A DNA stretch of 64,000 bases, taken from the sequence record OR352938.1; one strand, 5' to 3'. The DNA is from Escherichia phage AV108. Every line of letters begins with the position of its first letter. The stretch's first letter is position 1. Below the pieces are notes generated by a model, which saw only the letters and a list, made by a program, of their open reading frames with translations, was not told the DNA's origin and ran no database searches. This document shows positions 2,923 through 63,131 of this stretch, piece by piece. The position numbers and the translations under genes are program-made.

Positions 2923-5844
2923 ATGGCAGATTTAAGCAGAATCCAATTTAAACGCACTAGCACTAAAGGTCGTAAACCGGATGCTAGTACGATGAATCCG
3001 GGGGAATTGGCAATCAACCTTGCGGATCAATATCTTCTTACTAAAAATGATTCCGGTGATATTATCAATTTAAGTTGTCCTCCGGTGTATGACCGCGATG
3101 TTACAATGGCGGGTAAGGTTAAAGGTAATAATTATATCTTAAGTAAAACCGCTAACTATCTGGAAGATCAGACAGCGAGAGATCTTAACTACTTTGGCGC
3201 TTTCCGTACCAATGGTCTTGATGGTCTTCTCGAACTCACGCTAAACGTTCCTCACTCTTACGGCGTCCAACATGGTCGAGGATTTACTTTCCAATATGGG
3301 CACACTGGATCGCGTGTAGAAACTTATGGATACAATAAAGAAGGTCAAAAAGCATTTAGCTATAAAATGTATCACGAAGGTGATAAACCTACTCCCTCAG
3401 AATTGAACGTTTATAGCAAACAAGAAATTGACAGAATGTTTATTAAAAACGTTAAAATGTCTGTTCCTTCCGGTGACGCAACTCGTGGTTACTTTAAGAT
3501 CGCGACCGCAATGATTCCTCAGAATAATGGTCGAATGGCATTTTTACGGATTTACGGCGGAAACGGATATAATGTTAACTCCTACGATCAGGTGGAGTTC
3601 CTTGAAATTGTGATTCGTGGTGGTAATAATAACCCTAAAGGTGTTAGTATTGCTGCATATCGTCGTAATTCTTTGAACGTCCATGAAGTATTTGCAATTA
3701 ATACTTCCGGTGATAACTATGACATTTATGTTAACTATGGTCGTTACACCGATAACGTTATTGTAGAGTTTGGAAAAACTGTTGATGTTGCATTGACTGT
3801 TCACGATGTTCCTGAATTTTCGGCGACTAAACCCGCAACCGGAACTAAATTTGATGCTCGTGTTATTACGATGTTCAACACCGAAAACAAAGCCGGAACG
3901 TTGATGTTTGATAATAACGGTCAAGGAACATATGATATTATCAGCTTGAATAACTCGACTGATATCAATAAAAAATATCTTCGTAAGTTTCGTAGCAAAT
4001 CCACAGAAACAATATGGCATGAGGTTGTCGAGGGTAGCGTATATCGTTTAGCTACTGGCGTTACTGATCAGTCAGACCAACTAAAAATTGATTTTAATGG
4101 GGTTACTGTAAATCGTCTTTTCGTTAAGGGAAATAATGCTATCAGAATGGAGCGTAGAGACGGACAAAGTAATTACCTAGAATTTTATGATTATCGTTCC
4201 GGTGCTAACCGCCGTCAAGGTTATCTAGGGTATGGTGACGGTACTACTAACACCGTACAGTTAGTAAATGAATTAACGGAAGGTAATAACTCATTAAGAC
4301 TGGATGATACTGGTCAGGTTACGTTGTCTGTAGGCAAAACAAAAATTGTATATACCAACGGACAATATTATTCCGCTAACTCTGATGCATATCGTATGAT
4401 CTATGGCAATTACGGTGCATTCTGGCGCAATGACGGGACTAAAGTTTATCTTCTTTCCACCGAAGAAAATGACCATTTTGGTGGATGGAACGGCAACCGA
4501 CCATTCATTTACGATTTGACGACTGGTAAAGTTACTTTAGGTGGTGACGGTAACGAAGGTGCATTAGTTCTTGAAAGAGATAGCCGTGCTGCTAGATTTG
4601 CTGGCGACATTTACGTTGGCAAAGGGATGTTAACATTTGATGCCGGACGATTAAATTCTCGTGATTACTTCCGGTTTAACCATTGGGGCGATAGCAATAA
4701 CGCTCGTGATAACATCTTACAGCTTGACGATAGCAAAGGCGCACACTTCACCACTGAACGTACTTTAGCAACTGGTGCAATTAAAACTAAATTCTTCGGT
4801 GATTTGGAATCTGCTGGTCAAATTAAATGGGGTAAAGGGACCGCCACATCTACGTTTACTCTACGTGTATGGGGTAACGATAGTCGTAAACAAATATTTG
4901 AATGCGGCGATGAAAGCGGGTGGCATTGGTATACCCAACGAGCGGGGGGTCCTGGTACAAATGATATTATATTCAATGTTAACGGGAAATTTCAATCTCA
5001 GGGTTTTGAGACTTCCGGTAATATTAAGATAACTGGTCCAGACCTTGAGTTTCGTCGCACTGGTAATAAGCATATCTGGTTTAGAGATCCAAACGGCTTA
5101 GAGTTAGGCGTGATGTACTGCGATGATGCTGGTGCTATTCGCTTCCGTGGTCAGAAACAAGCCCAGTCGTGGAAATTTGCAGATAAAATGATCCAGTTGG
5201 AATCTGGTACTGTATCCGGTGGCGGTAATGGCCTGATTCGTGGTGAAGTTGCTGGCGGTAGTTGGGCTAGCTGGCGTGACCGTGCTGCTGGCCTTATGGT
5301 TGGGTGTCCTCAATCAACCAATTCCGCTCATAACATCTGGAAAGCTACTCATTGGGGTAAATATCACATCGCAGCAATGGGTGTACACGTTCCTAGCGGT
5401 ACTATCGGTAATGCTATAGCTCGCCTAAACGTTCATGACGCCAACTTTGACTTTAGCGCCTCCGGTGACATGTCGGCAGGGCGTAACGGTTCGTTTAACG
5501 ATGTGTACATTCGTTCTGATGCTCGCCTGAAAATCAATAAGGAAGAGTATAAAGAGAATGCCACCGATAAAGTTAATCGCTTGACGGTATACACCTATGA
5601 CAAGGTTAAATCTTTAACCGACCGTACTGTCATTGCTCATGAAGTTGGTATTATTGCTCAGGATCTTGAAAAAGAATTGCCGGAAGCCGTAACAACTTCT
5701 AAGATCGGAGATCCAGATAATCCAGAAGAGATCTTAACAATTTCTAACTCTGCTGTCAACGCTCTTTTAATTAAGGCGTTTCAGGAAATGAGCGAAGAAT
5801 TGAAAGCCGTTAAAGCTGAACTAGCGGAACTTAAAAAGAATTAA
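2923..5844 (+). CDS. 37: long tail fiber large distal subunit gp37 with C-terminal intramolecular chaperone domain
   Basis: 973 aa; N-terminus IQFKRTSTKGRKPDAS...GELAINL resembles T4 gp37; C-terminus SDARLKINKEE...GIIAQDLEKEL...coiled coil resembles S74-type self-cleaving chaperone. Confidence 0.85.
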   Translation: MADLSRIQFKRTSTKGRKPDASTMNPGELAINLADQYLLTKNDSGDIINLSCPPVYDRDVTMAGKVKGNNYILSKTANYLEDQTARDLNYFGAFRTNGLDGLLELTLNVPHSYGVQHGRGFTFQYGHTGSRVETYGYNKEGQKAFSYKMYHEGDKPTPSELNVYSKQEIDRMFIKNVKMSVPSGDATRGYFKIATAMIPQNNGRMAFLRIYGGNGYNVNSYDQVEFLEIVIRGGNNNPKGVSIAAYRRNSLNVHEVFAINTSGDNYDIYVNYGRYTDNVIVEFGKTVDVALTVHDVPEFSATKPATGTKFDARVITMFNTENKAGTLMFDNNGQGTYDIISLNNSTDINKKYLRKFRSKSTETIWHEVVEGSVYRLATGVTDQSDQLKIDFNGVTVNRLFVKGNNAIRMERRDGQSNYLEFYDYRSGANRRQGYLGYGDGTTNTVQLVNELTEGNNSLRLDDTGQVTLSVGKTKIVYTNGQYYSANSDAYRMIYGNYGAFWRNDGTKVYLLSTEENDHFGGWNGNRPFIYDLTTGKVTLGGDGNEGALVLERDSRAARFAGDIYVGKGMLTFDAGRLNSRDYFRFNHWGDSNNARDNILQLDDSKGAHFTTERTLATGAIKTKFFGDLESAGQIKWGKGTATSTFTLRVWGNDSRKQIFECGDESGWHWYTQRAGGPGTNDIIFNVNGKFQSQGFETSGNIKITGPDLEFRRTGNKHIWFRDPNGLELGVMYCDDAGAIRFRGQKQAQSWKFADKMIQLESGTVSGGGNGLIRGEVAGGSWASWRDRAAGLMVGCPQSTNSAHNIWKATHWGKYHIAAMGVHVPSGTIGNAIARLNVHDANFDFSASGDMSAGRNGSFNDVYIRSDARLKINKEEYKENATDKVNRLTVYTYDKVKSLTDRTVIAHEVGIIAQDLEKELPEAVTTSKIGDPDNPEEILTISNSAVNALLIKAFQEMSEELKAVKAELAELKKN

Positions 5845-5885: not shown

Positions 5886-6125
5886 ATGGTCTATAATATC
5901 GTCATTGGTGCTTTGTCTAGTTTCGGAATGAAACTATTATCAAAGTTAATTAGTGAAAAGATGCTCACTAAAATTTTCTTCTATTGCGCTCGTCGTCTTG
6001 CGGCCTATACCAATACGCCAATTGATGATCGTTTCGTGGAAGAACTTTATAAGGAGTTTAATAAAGATCAGTCAGAAGATAGTAACGAGCAAGATAAACC
6101 TAGTGATAGTCAAGTACCTAAATAA
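5886..6125 (+). CDS. hypothetical small protein in the position normally held by gp38
   Basis: 79-aa ORF with hydrophobic N-terminus and acidic C-terminus; no similarity to gp38 seen. Confidence 0.3.
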   Translation: MVYNIVIGALSSFGMKLLSKLISEKMLTKIFFYCARRLAAYTNTPIDDRFVEELYKEFNKDQSEDSNEQDKPSDSQVPK

Positions 6126-6158: not shown

Positions 6159-6815
6159 ATGCAAGTTTCTGAAAAAGGGAAAGACTTTGCTATCTCAAAT
6201 GTCCTGCGCGCTATTTTCACAACTAAAAGCACGGAGTTGCTCGTACTTCGTGTTTTTGCTGCCGTCGTGTTGTCCATATTGGCATTTGTCGTTTATAGTA
6301 AAAACGAGTTATTTGCGCTTTATAAAGAGACTCGTTATGAGACTTATGCTCACATTCTCCAGGTAGAGAAAGACCGCAATTTTGATAATGCAGCACAGGA
6401 GCAGTTACAGATAGTTCATGTGTCGGCTGATGCCGATTTTTCTGCTGTTTTTAGTTTTCGTCCGAAAAACCTAAACTATTTTGTTGATTTGGTGGCATAT
6501 GAAGGAAAGCTACCGCATACAATCGATGAAAAAAATTTAGGCGGATTCCCTATCAATAAAACGAGTGAAGAATATCGTAGGCATCTTTTAGGTAAATCAT
6601 ATTTTACCGATAAAGATTTCCAGTATATTCCATCAAGAGAAAAGAAATTAGAGAATATCGATATAGGTTTCATGTATTCTTGTCCTATATTCAATCTCGA
6701 TAATGTCTATTCTGGTAGTATCGCCATTTCATGGAAGAATAAACCGGATATTGACATTGAGAATTTAGATACTCTTTGCAATCAATCTGCCAGAATCCTC
6801 GGAAGGATTAGATAA
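6159..6815 (+). CDS. t: holin T
   Basis: 218 aa, single N-terminal TM; strong match to T4 holin (LEQLQIVHVSADADFSAVFSFRPKNLNYFVDLVAYEGKLP). Confidence 0.9.
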   Translation: MQVSEKGKDFAISNVLRAIFTTKSTELLVLRVFAAVVLSILAFVVYSKNELFALYKETRYETYAHILQVEKDRNFDNAAQEQLQIVHVSADADFSAVFSFRPKNLNYFVDLVAYEGKLPHTIDEKNLGGFPINKTSEEYRRHLLGKSYFTDKDFQYIPSREKKLENIDIGFMYSCPIFNLDNVYSGSIAISWKNKPDIDIENLDTLCNQSARILGRIR

Positions 6816-45206: not shown

Positions 45207-45703
45207 TTCTCAGCCTTTAATCTTTCTAGTTCTTCTTCCAGTTCCTTGATCCGTTGGTCACGTTCAAAGTCACGCTGCAACTTAGTGGCAAATACTCGTT
45301 TAAACTGTTTGTAATCATCGATTTTAAACACTTCTTCTTCGCCATAGCGACGCACAGAAACTTCGTAGTTATTGAAGAATTGTTGCATCATTGCTTCGGA
45401 TGATAGTTCTGCTGATACCACTTTAAAATATTGATCTTCGGTCGGTGAAAACCAATTACAAGCATAAAGATAAACCTTTTCATTGTCTGGACACTGGTAA
45501 GCCTTACCATCGATTTCAATCACAGAAACATATTCAGGTATAGTCGATGAATCAATAGCTAAGACTTTAAACTGACGGTCCCCGATAAACTCGGAGATCA
45601 CACGATTCGCATCACTGGTTGCAAAGGCTTTACGCGCTTGTTCGCTTTTCCACTGATAGGTCATACCAACAACAAACATATTACCAACCTCGCTCTTTAC
45701 CAA
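45203..45703 (-). CDS. paralogous-family protein A
   Basis: Shares TYxWK...PFxV...IEIDG...WF...FFxEV core and charged C-terminal helix with family members. Confidence 0.5.
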   Translation of the reverse strand: MVKSEVGNMFVVGMTYQWKSEQARKAFATSDANRVISEFIGDRQFKVLAIDSSTIPEYVSVIEIDGKAYQCPDNEKVYLYACNWFSPTEDQYFKVVSAELSSEAMMQQFFNNYEVSVRRYGEEEVFKIDDYKQFKRVFATKLQRDFERDQRIKELEEELERLKAEK

Positions 45704-46214
45704 TCAAAAATTCAACTTCACGACGTTTAATATCTTCTTGAAGGTCTTTAATCTTCTGTCGATCTTGCATGATTTCATCCATCTTGTCAAGTGCTGCAAT
45801 GAAATCATCGAAACGTTCAAAGGTTTTACCTTCATTTGCTTCGCTAAATTTAACCATAGTCAGACCGTAACGACTACTAAACAGACGTTTCAACTGTCCA
45901 ACGATCTTAGAATCAGTGGTTATAACTTCCAATTCTTCTACTTCTTGAAAGAATTTTCTATCAGAATCAATAAACCAGCTAGTTCCTTTATGGTTGCTAT
46001 CTTCGGTTGCACTCATTAGAGTATGGTCTTTACCATCAATTTCAATTACATCAATTTGCCCACATGGACTAACCTTTTTAACAGTAAAAGGTCTATAATT
46101 TATTGCTCGTGCAATAACATAATTAAGGTTAGATACGTTTTCAGCATAATGGCAGAAGTCGGTCATAGCATTCGCATCTTTCCAGGTGTAAGTTTTACCA
46201 ATTTCCCATTTCAT
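45681..46214 (-). CDS. paralogous-family protein B
   Basis: MKWEIGKTYTWK...PFTVKKVSPCGQIDVIEIDGKDH; tandem family member. Confidence 0.5.
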   Translation of the reverse strand: MKWEIGKTYTWKDANAMTDFCHYAENVSNLNYVIARAINYRPFTVKKVSPCGQIDVIEIDGKDHTLMSATEDSNHKGTSWFIDSDRKFFQEVEELEVITTDSKIVGQLKRLFSSRYGLTMVKFSEANEGKTFERFDDFIAALDKMDEIMQDRQKIKDLQEDIKRREVEFLIGKERGW

Positions 46215-47743: not shown

Positions 47744-47879
47744 TTACCCCGAACTCGTTTACAATCTGCGCTTTATAGTAACCACCGCGAGATGCTAATA
47801 GATAAGCTGGGCTTAGGTATTCGTATTCACGGATTTCTACTTGTGCGTTTTCAGTTTCCCAAATCAGTAAAGTCCACAT
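47727..47879 (-). CDS. hypothetical small protein
   Basis: About 50 aa from MWTLLIWETENAQ with AGGAG RBS; track ORF starts inside the promoter. Confidence 0.3.
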   Translation of the reverse strand: MWTLLIWETENAQVEIREYEYLSPAYLLASRGGYYKAQIVNEFGVIEYEF

Positions 47880-57920: not shown

Positions 57921-58227
57921 CAAGTTTTCTTCTCTGTGCAATTCGTGCAATCTTCCTTTCATGATTTCGTTGGTTCCTGTCTTCATAGTCTACCCACTCA
58001 ACAAGATCTTTACCTAACTCGAAAGCCCATTCTCGATCCTGCTTTACGTTTTGTAGGTATGAGCTTTCCGACACTCGACGAAGTGATGTTGTCGTAACAA
58101 GAATGATCTCAGGAATGGTCGGATGTTCTTTTCCATATACAATAGGACGCGAGTCACTATCAATACCTTGTAAGAAGGTGTATCCTGAATCACTTAGAAT
58201 CATATACTTTTTCATTTCACACATCAC
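57886..58227 (-). CDS. hypothetical protein
   Basis: 113-aa ORF, basic C-terminus. Confidence 0.4.
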   Translation of the reverse strand: MMCEMKKYMILSDSGYTFLQGIDSDSRPIVYGKEHPTIPEIILVTTTSLRRVSESSYLQNVKQDREWAFELGKDLVEWVDYEDRNQRNHERKIARIAQRRKLDEIKNRILQSM

Positions 58228-58481
58228 AGTTTCCTCAACCAGTTATTCAAGCGAGTAAACCATGATGCTTTTCGTGCTTCTTTTACTTTATGTGCACGTA
58301 AACCACTGAAACACCATTCATAATCATCACTGAAACATGATTCAACAGGAACACCCGCATTTCGTAGTTCTCTGGTCTTTATCATGAATCCTTGACATAA
58401 GGGGCGACCTTCAACAATGATAGGAAGTTTAACTTTTTCCATGAAAGTATACCCAGCACGGTCAATAATTTCAATTTTCAT
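58224..58481 (-). CDS. hypothetical protein
   Basis: 85-aa ORF. Confidence 0.4.
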   Translation of the reverse strand: MKIEIIDRAGYTFMEKVKLPIIVEGRPLCQGFMIKTRELRNAGVPVESCFSDDYEWCFSGLRAHKVKEARKASWFTRLNNWLRKL

Positions 58482-59694: not shown

Positions 59695-59722
59695 ATTATA
59701 GCATTGTGATTATCTTTGTCAA
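59695..59722 (-). promoter_or_regulatory. sigma70-type early promoter
   Basis: TTGACA-N16-TATAAT directly downstream of a terminator. Confidence 0.55.
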
Positions 59723-59726
59723 CACC

Positions 59727-59760
59727 CAAAAACAAAAAAAGGCTACCCCGAAGGATAGCC
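59727..59760 (-). terminator. intrinsic terminator after the gp38-like gene
   Basis: ggctatcc-ttcg-gggtagcc hairpin followed by a long T-run on the leftward strand. Confidence 0.55.
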
Positions 59761-59768
59761 CATAAAAA

Positions 59769-60545
59769 TTACACGCGAGCACCGTAGATCGTGCCTACTT
59801 TATCCCAGCGAGGGGCATTGCCAGTAACAGCCTTACCAGCCGCTCCGCCATTATACTCTGTACCGTTCCCCTGAGTATTACATCTTCCTCCAGCAGCACC
59901 AACGTTACCGCCCGCACCGCCTGTATATGCACTAAGAGACCCCGAACCAACAGATCCTTTACCCGGAGCGGAAATGGAGCCAGCGGTTGCACCAGAACCC
60001 ATATTAGAGGAAGACCCGGCAGCACCGAATGGGCGACCACCGCCACCACCAAATACTAGTCGACCCCTGTTACCTCCACCGCCGCCACCGCCGCCACCAG
60101 CGATAGCACCGTTATTTGTAATTCGTAGACGTGTACCGATAGCGTTATTGATTGCGTTTCCACCAGCAGCGCCAGCAGCGTTACTACCACCATTACCCCC
60201 ACGTCCGTAGACAGTCACACCGGAGTTAATGATCAATGTTACATATTCGTTTGTTAACGAGCTAGGGAAGTCAAGACAAGGAACGCCAGTAGATTGGGAA
60301 ACAATATCACCCGTGATAGTAATTACTACAGGAGTAGATCCTTGTGCTTTCATCCAGTTAATAAGAGTGTCTTTATTGTAAGAGTTACTAGCACCAATGC
60401 TATAATGAATCTCTTTAGAGCGTCCGACCATTGCCGACATATACGCCGGACGACCTAAGCGTACAGCTTGCATTGCGGCGCTCATCCACCGTTGACCAGT
60501 CTCGGACACAGCAGATGATCCTACCCATCCAGAAGATATTGCCAT
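59769..60545 (-). CDS. glycine-rich protein resembling gp38-type tail fiber adhesin
   Basis: 258 aa; N-terminal GWVGSSAVSETGQRWMS-type segment then several glycine-rich motifs (GRGGNGGSN, GGGGGGGGGNRG, GGGGGRPFGAAG, GGAGGNVGAAGG) separated by short variable stretches; GAGGAA RBS. Confidence 0.5.
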   Translation of the reverse strand: MAISSGWVGSSAVSETGQRWMSAAMQAVRLGRPAYMSAMVGRSKEIHYSIGASNSYNKDTLINWMKAQGSTPVVITITGDIVSQSTGVPCLDFPSSLTNEYVTLIINSGVTVYGRGGNGGSNAAGAAGGNAINNAIGTRLRITNNGAIAGGGGGGGGGNRGRLVFGGGGGRPFGAAGSSSNMGSGATAGSISAPGKGSVGSGSLSAYTGGAGGNVGAAGGRCNTQGNGTEYNGGAAGKAVTGNAPRWDKVGTIYGARV

Positions 60546-60599
60546 AAAATTTCCTCACAAGAAAAGCCCCATTTAAGGTGCATTGATTGATAATATTAC

Positions 60600-60821
60600 T
60601 TAGATGATCTCTGCTTCACCATTCAGGAAGAAAGACCATGTTTTGTTAGGATAGCGAAGCGCCCATGATTCAGCAGTTTTAACACCCGCTTCGAACAATT
60701 GACGGCTGGTTACTTTAGCCATACCATCGAAGATGGCAACGTTTTCAATAATCATCGGGTACTTAGCGCCACGCATGAAACCGAAACCAGCGGAAGATTT
60801 GATAATTTTAACAGTTGCCAT
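60600..60821 (-). CDS. hypothetical protein
   Basis: About 73 aa from MATVKIIKSS with AGGAGA RBS; immediately upstream of the gp38-like gene. Confidence 0.4.
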   Translation of the reverse strand: MATVKIIKSSAGFGFMRGAKYPMIIENVAIFDGMAKVTSRQLFEAGVKTAESWALRYPNKTWSFFLNGEAEII

Positions 60822-60862
60822 TTTGATTCTCCTAGAAAGTGTATCTCGTTTCGATGGGTGTA

Positions 60863-60890
60863 TTATGCAATAACACCGGATCGCTGTCAA
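60863..60890 (-). promoter_or_regulatory. sigma70-type early promoter
   Basis: TTGACA-N16-CATAAT; ggtgt/acacc inverted repeat around the -10; GATC in spacer. Confidence 0.5.
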
Positions 60891-62130: not shown

Positions 62131-62166
62131 AACACCTAAAAACGAAAAAGCCACCCTTTCGGATGG
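62131..62166. terminator. hairpin terminator
   Basis: agccaccc-tttc-ggatggct hairpin flanked by A-run and T-run; same sequence family as 49103-49139. Confidence 0.5.
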
Positions 62167-62402
62167 CTTTTTGATTATATTTTATTCACGTCCATTTGTA
62201 TAGTAGTGTTTGAATCGACCTTTGCTAAACTAGTTAAACATAGTAACCAATTCACCATCCCTTTCCAATGATAACCCTTCCTCATCTTAGACGGGTCTTC
62301 CGATTCGGTAGTAATTGAACACGCGAAAGTATGAGGAAGCCAAATAGTTGTGTTAATGCTAGTATTCTTTTACTTCTGGTATGCATCCCACAGTGACTAA
62401 CA

Positions 62403-63123: not shown

Positions 63124-63131
63124 TATTTATA
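63124..63131 (-). promoter_or_regulatory. T4-type late promoter (TATAAATA) upstream of rI
   Basis: Exact TATAAATA on the leftward strand about 35 nt before the rI start. Confidence 0.5.

Follow-up and report, generated by a model that had tools for sequence, protein, structure and literature searches.

Gene 38 of an RB49-like phage lies at the locus standard for its lineage, 54.7 kb from gene 37, and most probably encodes the receptor-binding long-tail-fibre tip

The open reading frame (ORF) on the minus strand at positions 59769-60545 of the window, the 64,000-nucleotide stretch of the Escherichia phage AV108 record OR352938.1 analysed here, is with a probability of about 0.9 the gene 38 of an RB49-like phage at the locus standard for its lineage, its product forming the tip of the long tail fibre (LTF) that binds the receptor. 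Over 2 kb around the gene, the window shares 98% identity with Krischvirus RB49 and 90-98% with about 40 further RB49-like coliphages, and by its sequence the window phage is a Krischvirus (RB49-like). The synteny typical of T2/T6/S16-type gene 38, directly after gene 37 in a late operon, is absent from the window. The sequence-only reading on which this study follows up had estimated a displacement of about 54 kb onto the opposite strand, and the measured distance is 54.7 kb, with gene 38 on the minus and gene 37 on the plus strand. Gene 38 and the parts of its product are the following.

59769..60545, minus strand: gene 38, T2/S16-type long-tail-fibre adhesin of 258 aa (Pfam, PDB 6F45_D, PHROG 2056; annotated in Phi1 and RB49)
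approximately aa 1-45, or to approximately aa 110 if the beta-helix part is counted: N-terminal gp37-attachment domain of gp38
approximately aa 114 to 245: glycine-rich motifs of gp38 alternating with hypervariable segments

The ORF starts with ATG and is intact. Its 258-aa product matches the Pfam family PF05268 (GP38) at profile positions 1-218 of 218 (E 4.4e-72), PF21721 (Gp38_N) with residues 1-40 (E 3.9e-18) and PHROG 2056, 'tail fiber protein; host specificity' (2e-98). The sequence-only reading had taken the product for a gp38-type glycine-rich adhesin and had named S16 gp38 as the homologue to look for. Both Pfam families and the structure agree with this, since S16 gp38 (PDB 6F45 chain D) aligns with the window gp38 over nearly the full length (residues 1-256 against 1-247, E 1.4e-49). 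The attachment domain at the N-terminus, the glycine-rich motifs and the C-terminal strand of the window gp38 all lie within this alignment, and the N-terminus matches the S16 attachment domain residue for residue. Glycine makes up 34% of residues 114-258, and an alignment of eight Krischvirus gp38s shows invariant G-runs and an invariant GGGGGRPFG motif, with variation confined between the motifs. Judged by these matches, the product is a full-length T2/T6/S16-type gp38 adhesin. A tblastn search of the window for gp38 homologues returned one copy, this ORF. A pseudogene or relic was considered and rejected, because this single-copy ORF is intact and is involved in the exchange of hypervariable segments described below.

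The gene is annotated at the same position in Phi1 ('38, gp38 distal long tail fiber adhesin'), and equivalent gene 38 annotations are found at this locus in RB49, JSE, ECD7 and GEC-3S, with flanking small ORFs, rI and tk that are identical in kind. The location between dam and rI/tk that had been proposed agrees with these rI and tk flanks and with a methylase gene that lies approximately 4 kb farther on in the relative G2248. Gene 38 of RB49, Phi1 and JSE is the same gene in the same surroundings of ORFs, terminator and promoters (96-98% nucleotide identity, point differences only), and Phi1 gp38 is 98% identical to the window protein. In approximately 43 Krischvirus records gene 38 lies exactly here, which makes this the normal gp38 locus of close relatives, one half of what the sequence-only reading had itself named as counting against its interpretation. 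The displacement of gene 38 in RB49 and the small ORF in its usual place are described by Trojet et al. (2011, PMC3157838), citing Desplats 2002, and a 2025 paper states that the gp38 genes of FL37 and FL38 are 'not located near the holin' (PMC12032242). The literature therefore already covers the element and where it has moved to, the small ORF behind gene 37 and the adhesin function; the genus-wide tally and the mosaic across loci given below are extra detail and no new kind of thing. The value of the finding is mainly negative, as there is no new kind of element to pursue.

The partner of gp38 and the genes that follow it at the canonical locus are these.

2923..5844, plus strand: gene 37, distal long-tail-fibre subunit of 973 aa (Pfam Gp34_trimer and Peptidase_S74; annotated in RB49 and Phi1)
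5515..5844, plus strand: C-terminal intramolecular chaperone of gp37, aa 865-973, starting at the autocleavage motif YIR/SDARLK (the slash marks the cut)
5886..6125, plus strand: 79-aa ORF ('Dc5' in the RB49 annotation), function unknown, phrog_402 match (5.5e-20)
6159-6815: holin t, after the 79-aa ORF

The window gp37 matches S16 gp37 (6F45_A) weakly, and its distal part is only approximately 92% identical to that of RB49. Its possession of a C-terminal chaperone had been pointed out by the sequence-only reading, which considered an adhesin uncoupled from gp37. The domain is present (Peptidase_S74 at aa 865-924, E 1.4e-11), but it is no mark of independence from gp38: a self-cleaving gp37 chaperone domain is normal for gp38-using fibres, and in RB49 gp38 caps gp37 once the domain has been removed (PMC9569957). 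All Krischvirus gp37s examined keep the cleavage motif DVYIRSD-RLK, whether or not gene 38 is next to gene 37. The 79-aa ORF was likewise correctly placed by the earlier reading in the canonical gene 38 slot (5886-6125), but it is not a replacement, as the gene order is 37-38-ORF79-t in sister phages that keep gene 38 behind gene 37 (kvi, FL15 and others). Because ORF79/Dc5 is present in all 58 Krischvirus records (95-99.5% identity), with or without gene 38 at the early locus, it is a separate conserved gene, a neighbour of the holin and no stand-in for gene 38.

The distribution of the early-strand locus was surveyed with the 'empty' junction of phage G2248 as query, which matched 58 Krischvirus records; these are records and not independent phages, six phages being present in both GenBank and RefSeq copies. 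Gene 38 is inserted at the exact junction in 43 of the 58 (match in two pieces, spanning approximately 2.17 kb), while 13 have the empty junction (one piece of 1.3 kb) with flanks that are 95-99% identical. The remaining two are phiS, with a shortened junction, and FL04, in which the junction is cut by the end of the record. The elements at the boundaries of the insertion are given here.

60600..60821, minus strand: 73-aa ORF, homologue of Phi1 ORF080, function unknown, phrog_7345 match (3.4e-33); first gene of the transcription unit that contains gene 38
59731..59761, minus strand: intrinsic terminator directly after gene 38, a hairpin at 59761-59740 with a 9-bp stem (GGGCTATCC/GGGTAGCCT) followed by a T-run (terminator scan)
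59695..59722, minus strand: next early promoter, TTGACA, 16 nt, TATAAT (12/12 matches)

The 73-aa ORF is there whether or not gene 38 is, and in G2248 it adjoins the empty locus: a promoter whose spacer contains a stem-loop comes immediately after its stop codon. Behind this stop codon the window has a 54-nt leader, gene 38, the terminator and a different version of the promoter, with homology returning after the -10 box. The terminator at 59761-59740 and the promoter at 59722-59695 form a PeSL-type cassette, which is the right-hand boundary of the presence/absence polymorphism.

Fifteen records are without gene 38 at the early locus, and the tail-fibre locus was inspected in 14 of them (all but MIZ4). 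In 11 of these 14 gene 38 lies directly behind a different gene 37 (kvi, FL20, FL15, KMB43, MIZ5, LF73P4, phiS, FL04, Skers, G2494 and G5211). The other three, G2248, G37-3 and UPWr_E1, have gene 38 at neither the early nor the canonical locus; they carry a third type of gene 37 and, in the canonical slot, three unrelated extra ORFs of approximately 100 aa each. For G37-3 and UPWr_E1 this absence refers to the two loci inspected, and for G2248 to the whole genome, in which tblastn gave no gp38 hit at E <= 10. Among the matches listed, each of 60 records, the close relatives of the window phage included, has a single gene 38 match.

The position of gene 38 goes together with the kind of gene 37. 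The gp37 of phages without the early-locus gene is at most 50% identical to that of the window or can be aligned only in parts, and the window-type 3' end of gene 37, running into Dc5, is found in all early-locus phages among the matches listed. Phages with a canonical gene 38 match this 3' end in the chaperone core only (75%). By these comparisons the two positions of gene 38 are mutually exclusive and tied to the type of gp37, which therefore fits a distant gene supplying the tip of that particular gp37. Across the 58 Krischvirus genomes the adhesin gene thus has two alternative loci, separated by 55 kb, or is absent, which illustrates how fibre tips evolve. For receptor prediction and the engineering of therapeutic RB49-like phages it follows that gene 38 should also be searched for away from gene 37.

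The two parts of gp38 behave differently in this respect. Identity was taken by segment from the alignment of eight Krischvirus gp38s, for the N-terminal ~110 columns and for the specificity segment (columns 161-250), with these results.

window and GEC-3S, both early locus: N-terminal 98%, specificity 64%
kvi and FL15, both canonical locus: N-terminal 96%, specificity 65.5%
window and kvi, early and canonical locus: N-terminal 46%, specificity 94%
GEC-3S and FL15, early and canonical locus: N-terminal 44.5%, specificity 84%

The N-terminal domain is thus 98% identical within a gp37 type and approximately 45% between types. In these alignments the attachment part follows the locus and the gp37 type, and the specificity part is traded between loci; the displaced gene 38 therefore shares in the exchange of hypervariable segments through the glycine-rich motifs, as described for canonical gene 38 by Trojet et al. 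(PMC3157838). The canonical-slot gp38s, including those of the Krischviruses kvi, FL15, FL20 and G2494, have family and architecture in common with the window gp38, and the 94% identity of the kvi specificity segment points to exchange through these motifs. In contrast, their N-terminal domain is only approximately 45% identical to that of the window, they are paired with a different gp37, and their genes follow gene 37 after 37 nt, co-oriented with it in the late operon. The N-terminus of these Krischvirus copies is of the T2/T6 type, and the gp37 of G5211 is annotated as similar to T6. Since the canonical-slot copies have this N-terminus and accompany foreign distal parts of gp37, it is likely that they were imported as pairs of genes 37 and 38, and that the resident gene 38 at the early locus, now mismatched, was lost.

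A 2022 study of RB49-like phages identified RB49 gp38 as the LTF adhesin and published AlphaFold models of it; in two RB49 host-range mutants the sole changes are gp38 E230K, or E230K together with Y231S (PMC9569957). Both E230 and Y231 are present in the window gp38. Because the RB49 mutants map to gene 38 and both residues are kept, the gene is probably that of a working adhesin here. Incorporation of the window gp38 into the virion would follow from homology and from RB49 genetics. Genome-wide screens found OmpA to be the receptor of RB49 (bioRxiv 10.64898/2026.04.02.716166), and gp38 of the RB49 type targets OmpA or O-antigen (PMC9569957; bioRxiv 10.64898/2026.04.02.716166). Furthermore, FL20 depends on OmpA (PMC12032242), and its gp38 shows the same tblastn identity to the window protein as that of kvi, with a specificity segment about as similar as that of kvi (94% for kvi). 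As the OmpA-dependent FL20 resembles the window gp38 as closely as kvi does, OmpA is likely the receptor of the window phage, and some O-antigens may be recognised as well, as in RB49.

The closest structural template, the gp38/gp37 tip of S16 (PDB 6F45), shares near-full-length homology with the window gp38, and its gp37 likewise has a C-terminal chaperone. Unlike in the window, gene 38 of S16 directly follows gene 37, and the hypervariable loops differ. Marti and co-workers reportedly found in 2013 that S16 binds OmpC.

The RB49, JSE and GEC-3S records name the product 'distal long tail fiber assembly catalyst', which would suit a protein that, like T4 gp38, helps gp37 to fold and is not part of the virion, and T2-type gp38 is needed for fibre assembly too. 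T4 gp38, an assembly chaperone and not a virion component, shares the gene number and sometimes the product name with the window protein but is unrelated to it, and in T4 the adhesin function resides in the gp37 C-terminus (PMC3157838). The window sequence belongs to the adhesin family that was solved with the gp37 tip (6F45_D) and not to the T4 chaperone, and gp37 has an intramolecular chaperone of its own. In addition, the RB49 host-range substitutions lie in C-terminal loops of gp38 (PMC9569957), and the specificity segments correlate with receptor use (PMC12032242). A function limited to fibre assembly is hence most improbable.

The less usual side of the gene is its regulation, for which the following elements on the minus strand, in addition to those above, have to be considered.

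60551..60556, minus strand: ribosome-binding site (RBS) of gene 38, GAGGAA, spaced 5 nt from the ATG and unlike the AGGAGAATCAAA leader of the PeSL-driven ORFs
60559..60581, minus strand: small hairpin and U-run between ORF080 and gene 38 (GCACC-TTAAAT-GGGGC TTTTCTT)
60862..60890, minus strand: sigma70-type early promoter, TTGACA-17-CATAAT (11/12 matches, promoter scan); annotated in GEC-3S
62145..62172, minus strand: strong terminator with a 12-bp stem, separating the ORFs that precede gene 38 from the rI late unit (terminator scan)
63124..63131, minus strand: nearest upstream late promoter, TATAAATA, before rI and 2.6 kb upstream of gene 38

Gene 38 had been credited with its own RBS and terminator, and both were recovered (GAGGAA at 60556-60551; hairpin at 59761-59740 with T-run). 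A sigma70-type promoter had also been proposed at approximately 60863-60890. The TTGACA-17-CATAAT element is indeed there, but it belongs to the 73-aa ORF: the promoter at 60890 is followed by the conserved leader AGGAGAATCAAA and the ATG of ORF080, gene 38 starts 320 nt downstream of the promoter, and the hairpin intervenes. At the hairpin site Phi1 and GEC-3S have a perfect GCCCC-TTAATT-GGGGC attenuator, annotated as a terminator in GEC-3S, and for RB49 a 5-bp terminator between 38 and ORF080c is predicted at 46164-46179 (Nolan 2006, suppl. 6). The alignment shows the window version to be weakened by two substitutions relative to Phi1 and GEC-3S. Its predicted fold (-6.5 kcal/mol) is no better than that of shuffled sequences, and the hairpin at 60581-60559 was accordingly rejected as a terminator in the window and is called a weakened hairpin here. 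A TATTAT in the 54-nt leader was discarded as a sigma70 promoter, lacking an acceptable -35.

As the earlier reading had noted, TATAAATA is missing upstream of gene 38: neither TATAAATA nor an ATAAATA-type one-mismatch variant was found on the minus strand between 60546 and 63124. T4 late genes are marked by a TATAAATA-type promoter ahead of the gene or its operon, and gene 38 has none in this interval. The only other minus-strand one-mismatch site upstream of the gene, TATGAATA at 61240-61233, was rejected as a late promoter, as its core A is changed and it lies 700 nt away inside an ORF. TAATATTA and CTTAAATG in the 54-nt leader, each with three differences from TATAAATA, were rejected as hidden late promoters. 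No promoter belonging to gene 38 itself could be recognised, and terminator-like elements flank the gene on both sides. For a T4-type late function it is unusual that a structural gene should lie behind a hairpin with U-run and a sigma70 promoter and should lack a late promoter within 2.6 kb.

This arrangement lies behind the most far-reaching proposal of the sequence-only reading, namely that an adhesin-like protein is made early and independently of gp37 and serves as a decoy, masks the receptor, excludes superinfecting phages or acts as a retargeting module. The sigma70-type promoter 320 nt upstream, the lack of a late promoter within 2.6 kb and the position of the gene amid uncharacterised ORFs on the early strand are all in keeping with it. 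Against it, this is the sole gp38 of the genome and the RB49 host-range mutations map to gene 38; its gp37-attachment domain is intact and co-varies with the type of gp37; and the early-locus gene is lost precisely where another pair of genes 37 and 38, or a gp38-independent gene 37, was acquired. Furthermore, no secretion signal is evident in the N-terminus of the window gp38, so that an early, intracellular gp38 could have no access to the outer face of OmpA. Four observations contradict an activity uncoupled from gp37: the gene is single-copy, the attachment domain of its product is intact, that domain varies together with gp37, and host range maps to the gene in RB49. We consider such an activity to have very little chance of being correct.

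The same adhesin might instead be transcribed late. A gene product that is needed only late, together with the rI late promoter upstream on the same strand, would suit read-through from that promoter (63131-63124) past the terminator at 62172-62145, or the use of a late promoter that departs from the consensus. RB49 reportedly has early and late promoter classes only, with no MotA, an account credited to Desplats in 2002. This division is also given in PMC1524935, according to which RB49 late promoters vary, and tolerate variation, at position -13. However, 2.6 kb and two predicted terminators (62172-62145 and the hairpin at 60581-60559) lie between the rI promoter and gene 38, and no ATAAATA-type site is closer. 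The rI promoter corresponds to Pl:48756 of RB49, the sole late promoter predicted in the region, with none between 46.2 and 48.7 kb (Nolan et al. 2006, suppl. 5), and the terminator at 62172-62145 has its counterpart in the published RB49 terminator 47750-47767, 'RB49ORF084c<--rI' (Nolan 2006). A review of T4 late transcription mentions RB49 for gp55 only. Late transcription of gene 38 together with gene 37 thus looks unlikely from the arrangement of these signals, and late expression by either of the two routes is doubtful. The literature search for Krischvirus RNA-seq or virion mass spectrometry returned nothing usable.

Under the preferred reading, in which gp38 is the LTF tip, homology to S16 and T2 and the genetics of RB49 suggest the following course. 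The trimeric gp37 would fold with the aid of its C-terminal chaperone domain, which would then cut itself off at YIR/SD. One gp38 would dock with its N-terminal domain on the exposed gp37 tip, and the hypervariable loops between the glycine-rich motifs of its C-terminal domain would bind the host surface. The gene 38 module, which extends from the stop codon of the 73-aa ORF (left) to the PeSL-type cassette (right), would be one of those that RB49-type phages shuffle at PeSL-type boundaries in the hyperplastic early-strand region. Transcription would most probably occur by read-through from the 60890 promoter via ORF080 and the weak hairpin. Such read-through may yield a modest supply of gp38, of which approximately six copies would be needed per virion (one per fibre, as in S16), and gp38 made early would wait for gp37 made late.

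A more elaborate version would have gene 38 expressed from the first minutes off the host-sigma70 promoter via a leaky attenuator, with the free adhesin serving a second role beyond capping gp37. In that case gp38 made in advance might titrate or mark new receptor inside the infected cell, or block receptors on debris and neighbouring cells after lysis. We regard this as very improbable.

The ends of the module resemble the PeSL cassettes of RB49 and Phi1 described by Arbiol et al. (2010, PMC2839356), with a stem-loop terminator, a consensus sigma70 promoter and the AGGAGAATCAAA leader. As is typical of PeSL, close relatives differ here by an insertion, deletion or replacement that ends at the cassette (13 empty and 43 filled junctions). 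Both the cassette structure and the end points suggest that the gene 38 module is PeSL-bounded. Gene 38 is not mentioned by Arbiol et al. (2010, PMC2839356), who report that hoc, another virion gene, is PeSL-associated too. The terminator of the cassette is the counterpart of the published RB49 terminator 45339-45360, 'RB49ORF078c<--38' (Nolan 2006). The AGGAGAATCAAA leader motif occurs 10 times in the window, in all cases on the minus strand, compared to 0.75 occurrences expected.

The gene 38 products in the RB49, JSE and GEC-3S records (AY343333, EU863408 and HE978309), encoded at the locus equivalent to window 59769-60545, are listed as 'distal long tail fiber assembly catalyst'. This is the name of the T4 gp38 chaperone, carried over to an unrelated adhesin of the T2 type. 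Several other records label g38 just 'hypothetical protein'. The g38 of G5211, located in the canonical slot after g37 (L011 3642-4441), is annotated as two overlapping ORFs and is matched by tblastn in two pieces, an indication of either a frameshift or a sequencing error around codon 30.

In three Krischviruses (G2248, G37-3 and UPWr_E1), gp38 is absent from both the early locus and the canonical slot. The g37 of these phages is divergent, with the C-terminal Peptidase_S74 chaperone domain being retained, and is separated from Dc5, the 79-aa ORF preceding holin gene t, by three successive ORFs of ~100 aa:

L004 12408-13314, three ~100-aa ORFs of G2248
L017 3539-4445, three ~100-aa ORFs of G37-3
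L018 3549-4449, three ~100-aa ORFs of UPWr_E1

A Pfam search with these ORFs gave no match; they may represent an alternative fibre-tip or chaperone set. Dc5 itself (window 5886-6125, plus strand) is 95-99.5% conserved across 58 of 58 Krischvirus records, with holin t directly downstream in every case. It matches phrog_402 and contains a hydrophobic stretch at its N-terminus, and a lysis-related role is conceivable.

The exact late-promoter motif TATAAATA occurs twice in the 64 kb of the window:

1321, plus strand, TATAAATA before g36
63124, minus strand, TATAAATA before rI

The motif is thus rarer than chance in this mostly early window, as 2 exact copies compare with 5.8 expected and 79 one-mismatch variants with 129 expected. 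The leader/RBS motif AGGAGAATCAAA, counted with at most one mismatch, is present in 10 copies compared to 0.75 expected for the window, all on the minus strand:

10600, 17488, 47881, 57578, 59667, 60822, 62075 and others, minus strand, AGGAGAATCAAA

This motif is a marker of the early transcription units of the PeSL type (promoter/stem-loop cassette) described for RB49 and Phi1.

Between ORF080 (the Phi1 name for the 73-aa ORF upstream of g38) and g38, Phi1 and GEC-3S share a perfect hairpin, GCCCC-TTAATT-GGGGC, followed by a U-run. The window hairpin (60559-60581, minus strand) reads GCACC-TTAAAT-GGGGC, with two substitutions that leave one stem pair broken. Such a weakened hairpin could allow higher read-through into g38 in the AV108 isolate.

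The 73-aa ORF (60600-60821, minus strand), directly upstream of g38, and an 85-aa ORF 2 kb downstream (58224-58481, minus strand) form a paralogue pair, both matching phrog_7345 (E 3e-33 and 6e-39, respectively). Several further small ORFs nearby look loosely alike by eye. Between rI.-1 and a terminator/promoter cassette, ~230 nt (62175-62402, minus strand) contain no convincing ORF. At the equivalent site, G2248 carries a 714-aa ORF (L003 4509-6128 / L005 46893-49037) for which a Pfam search returned no match, and the Phi1 annotation places a 42-aa ORF.
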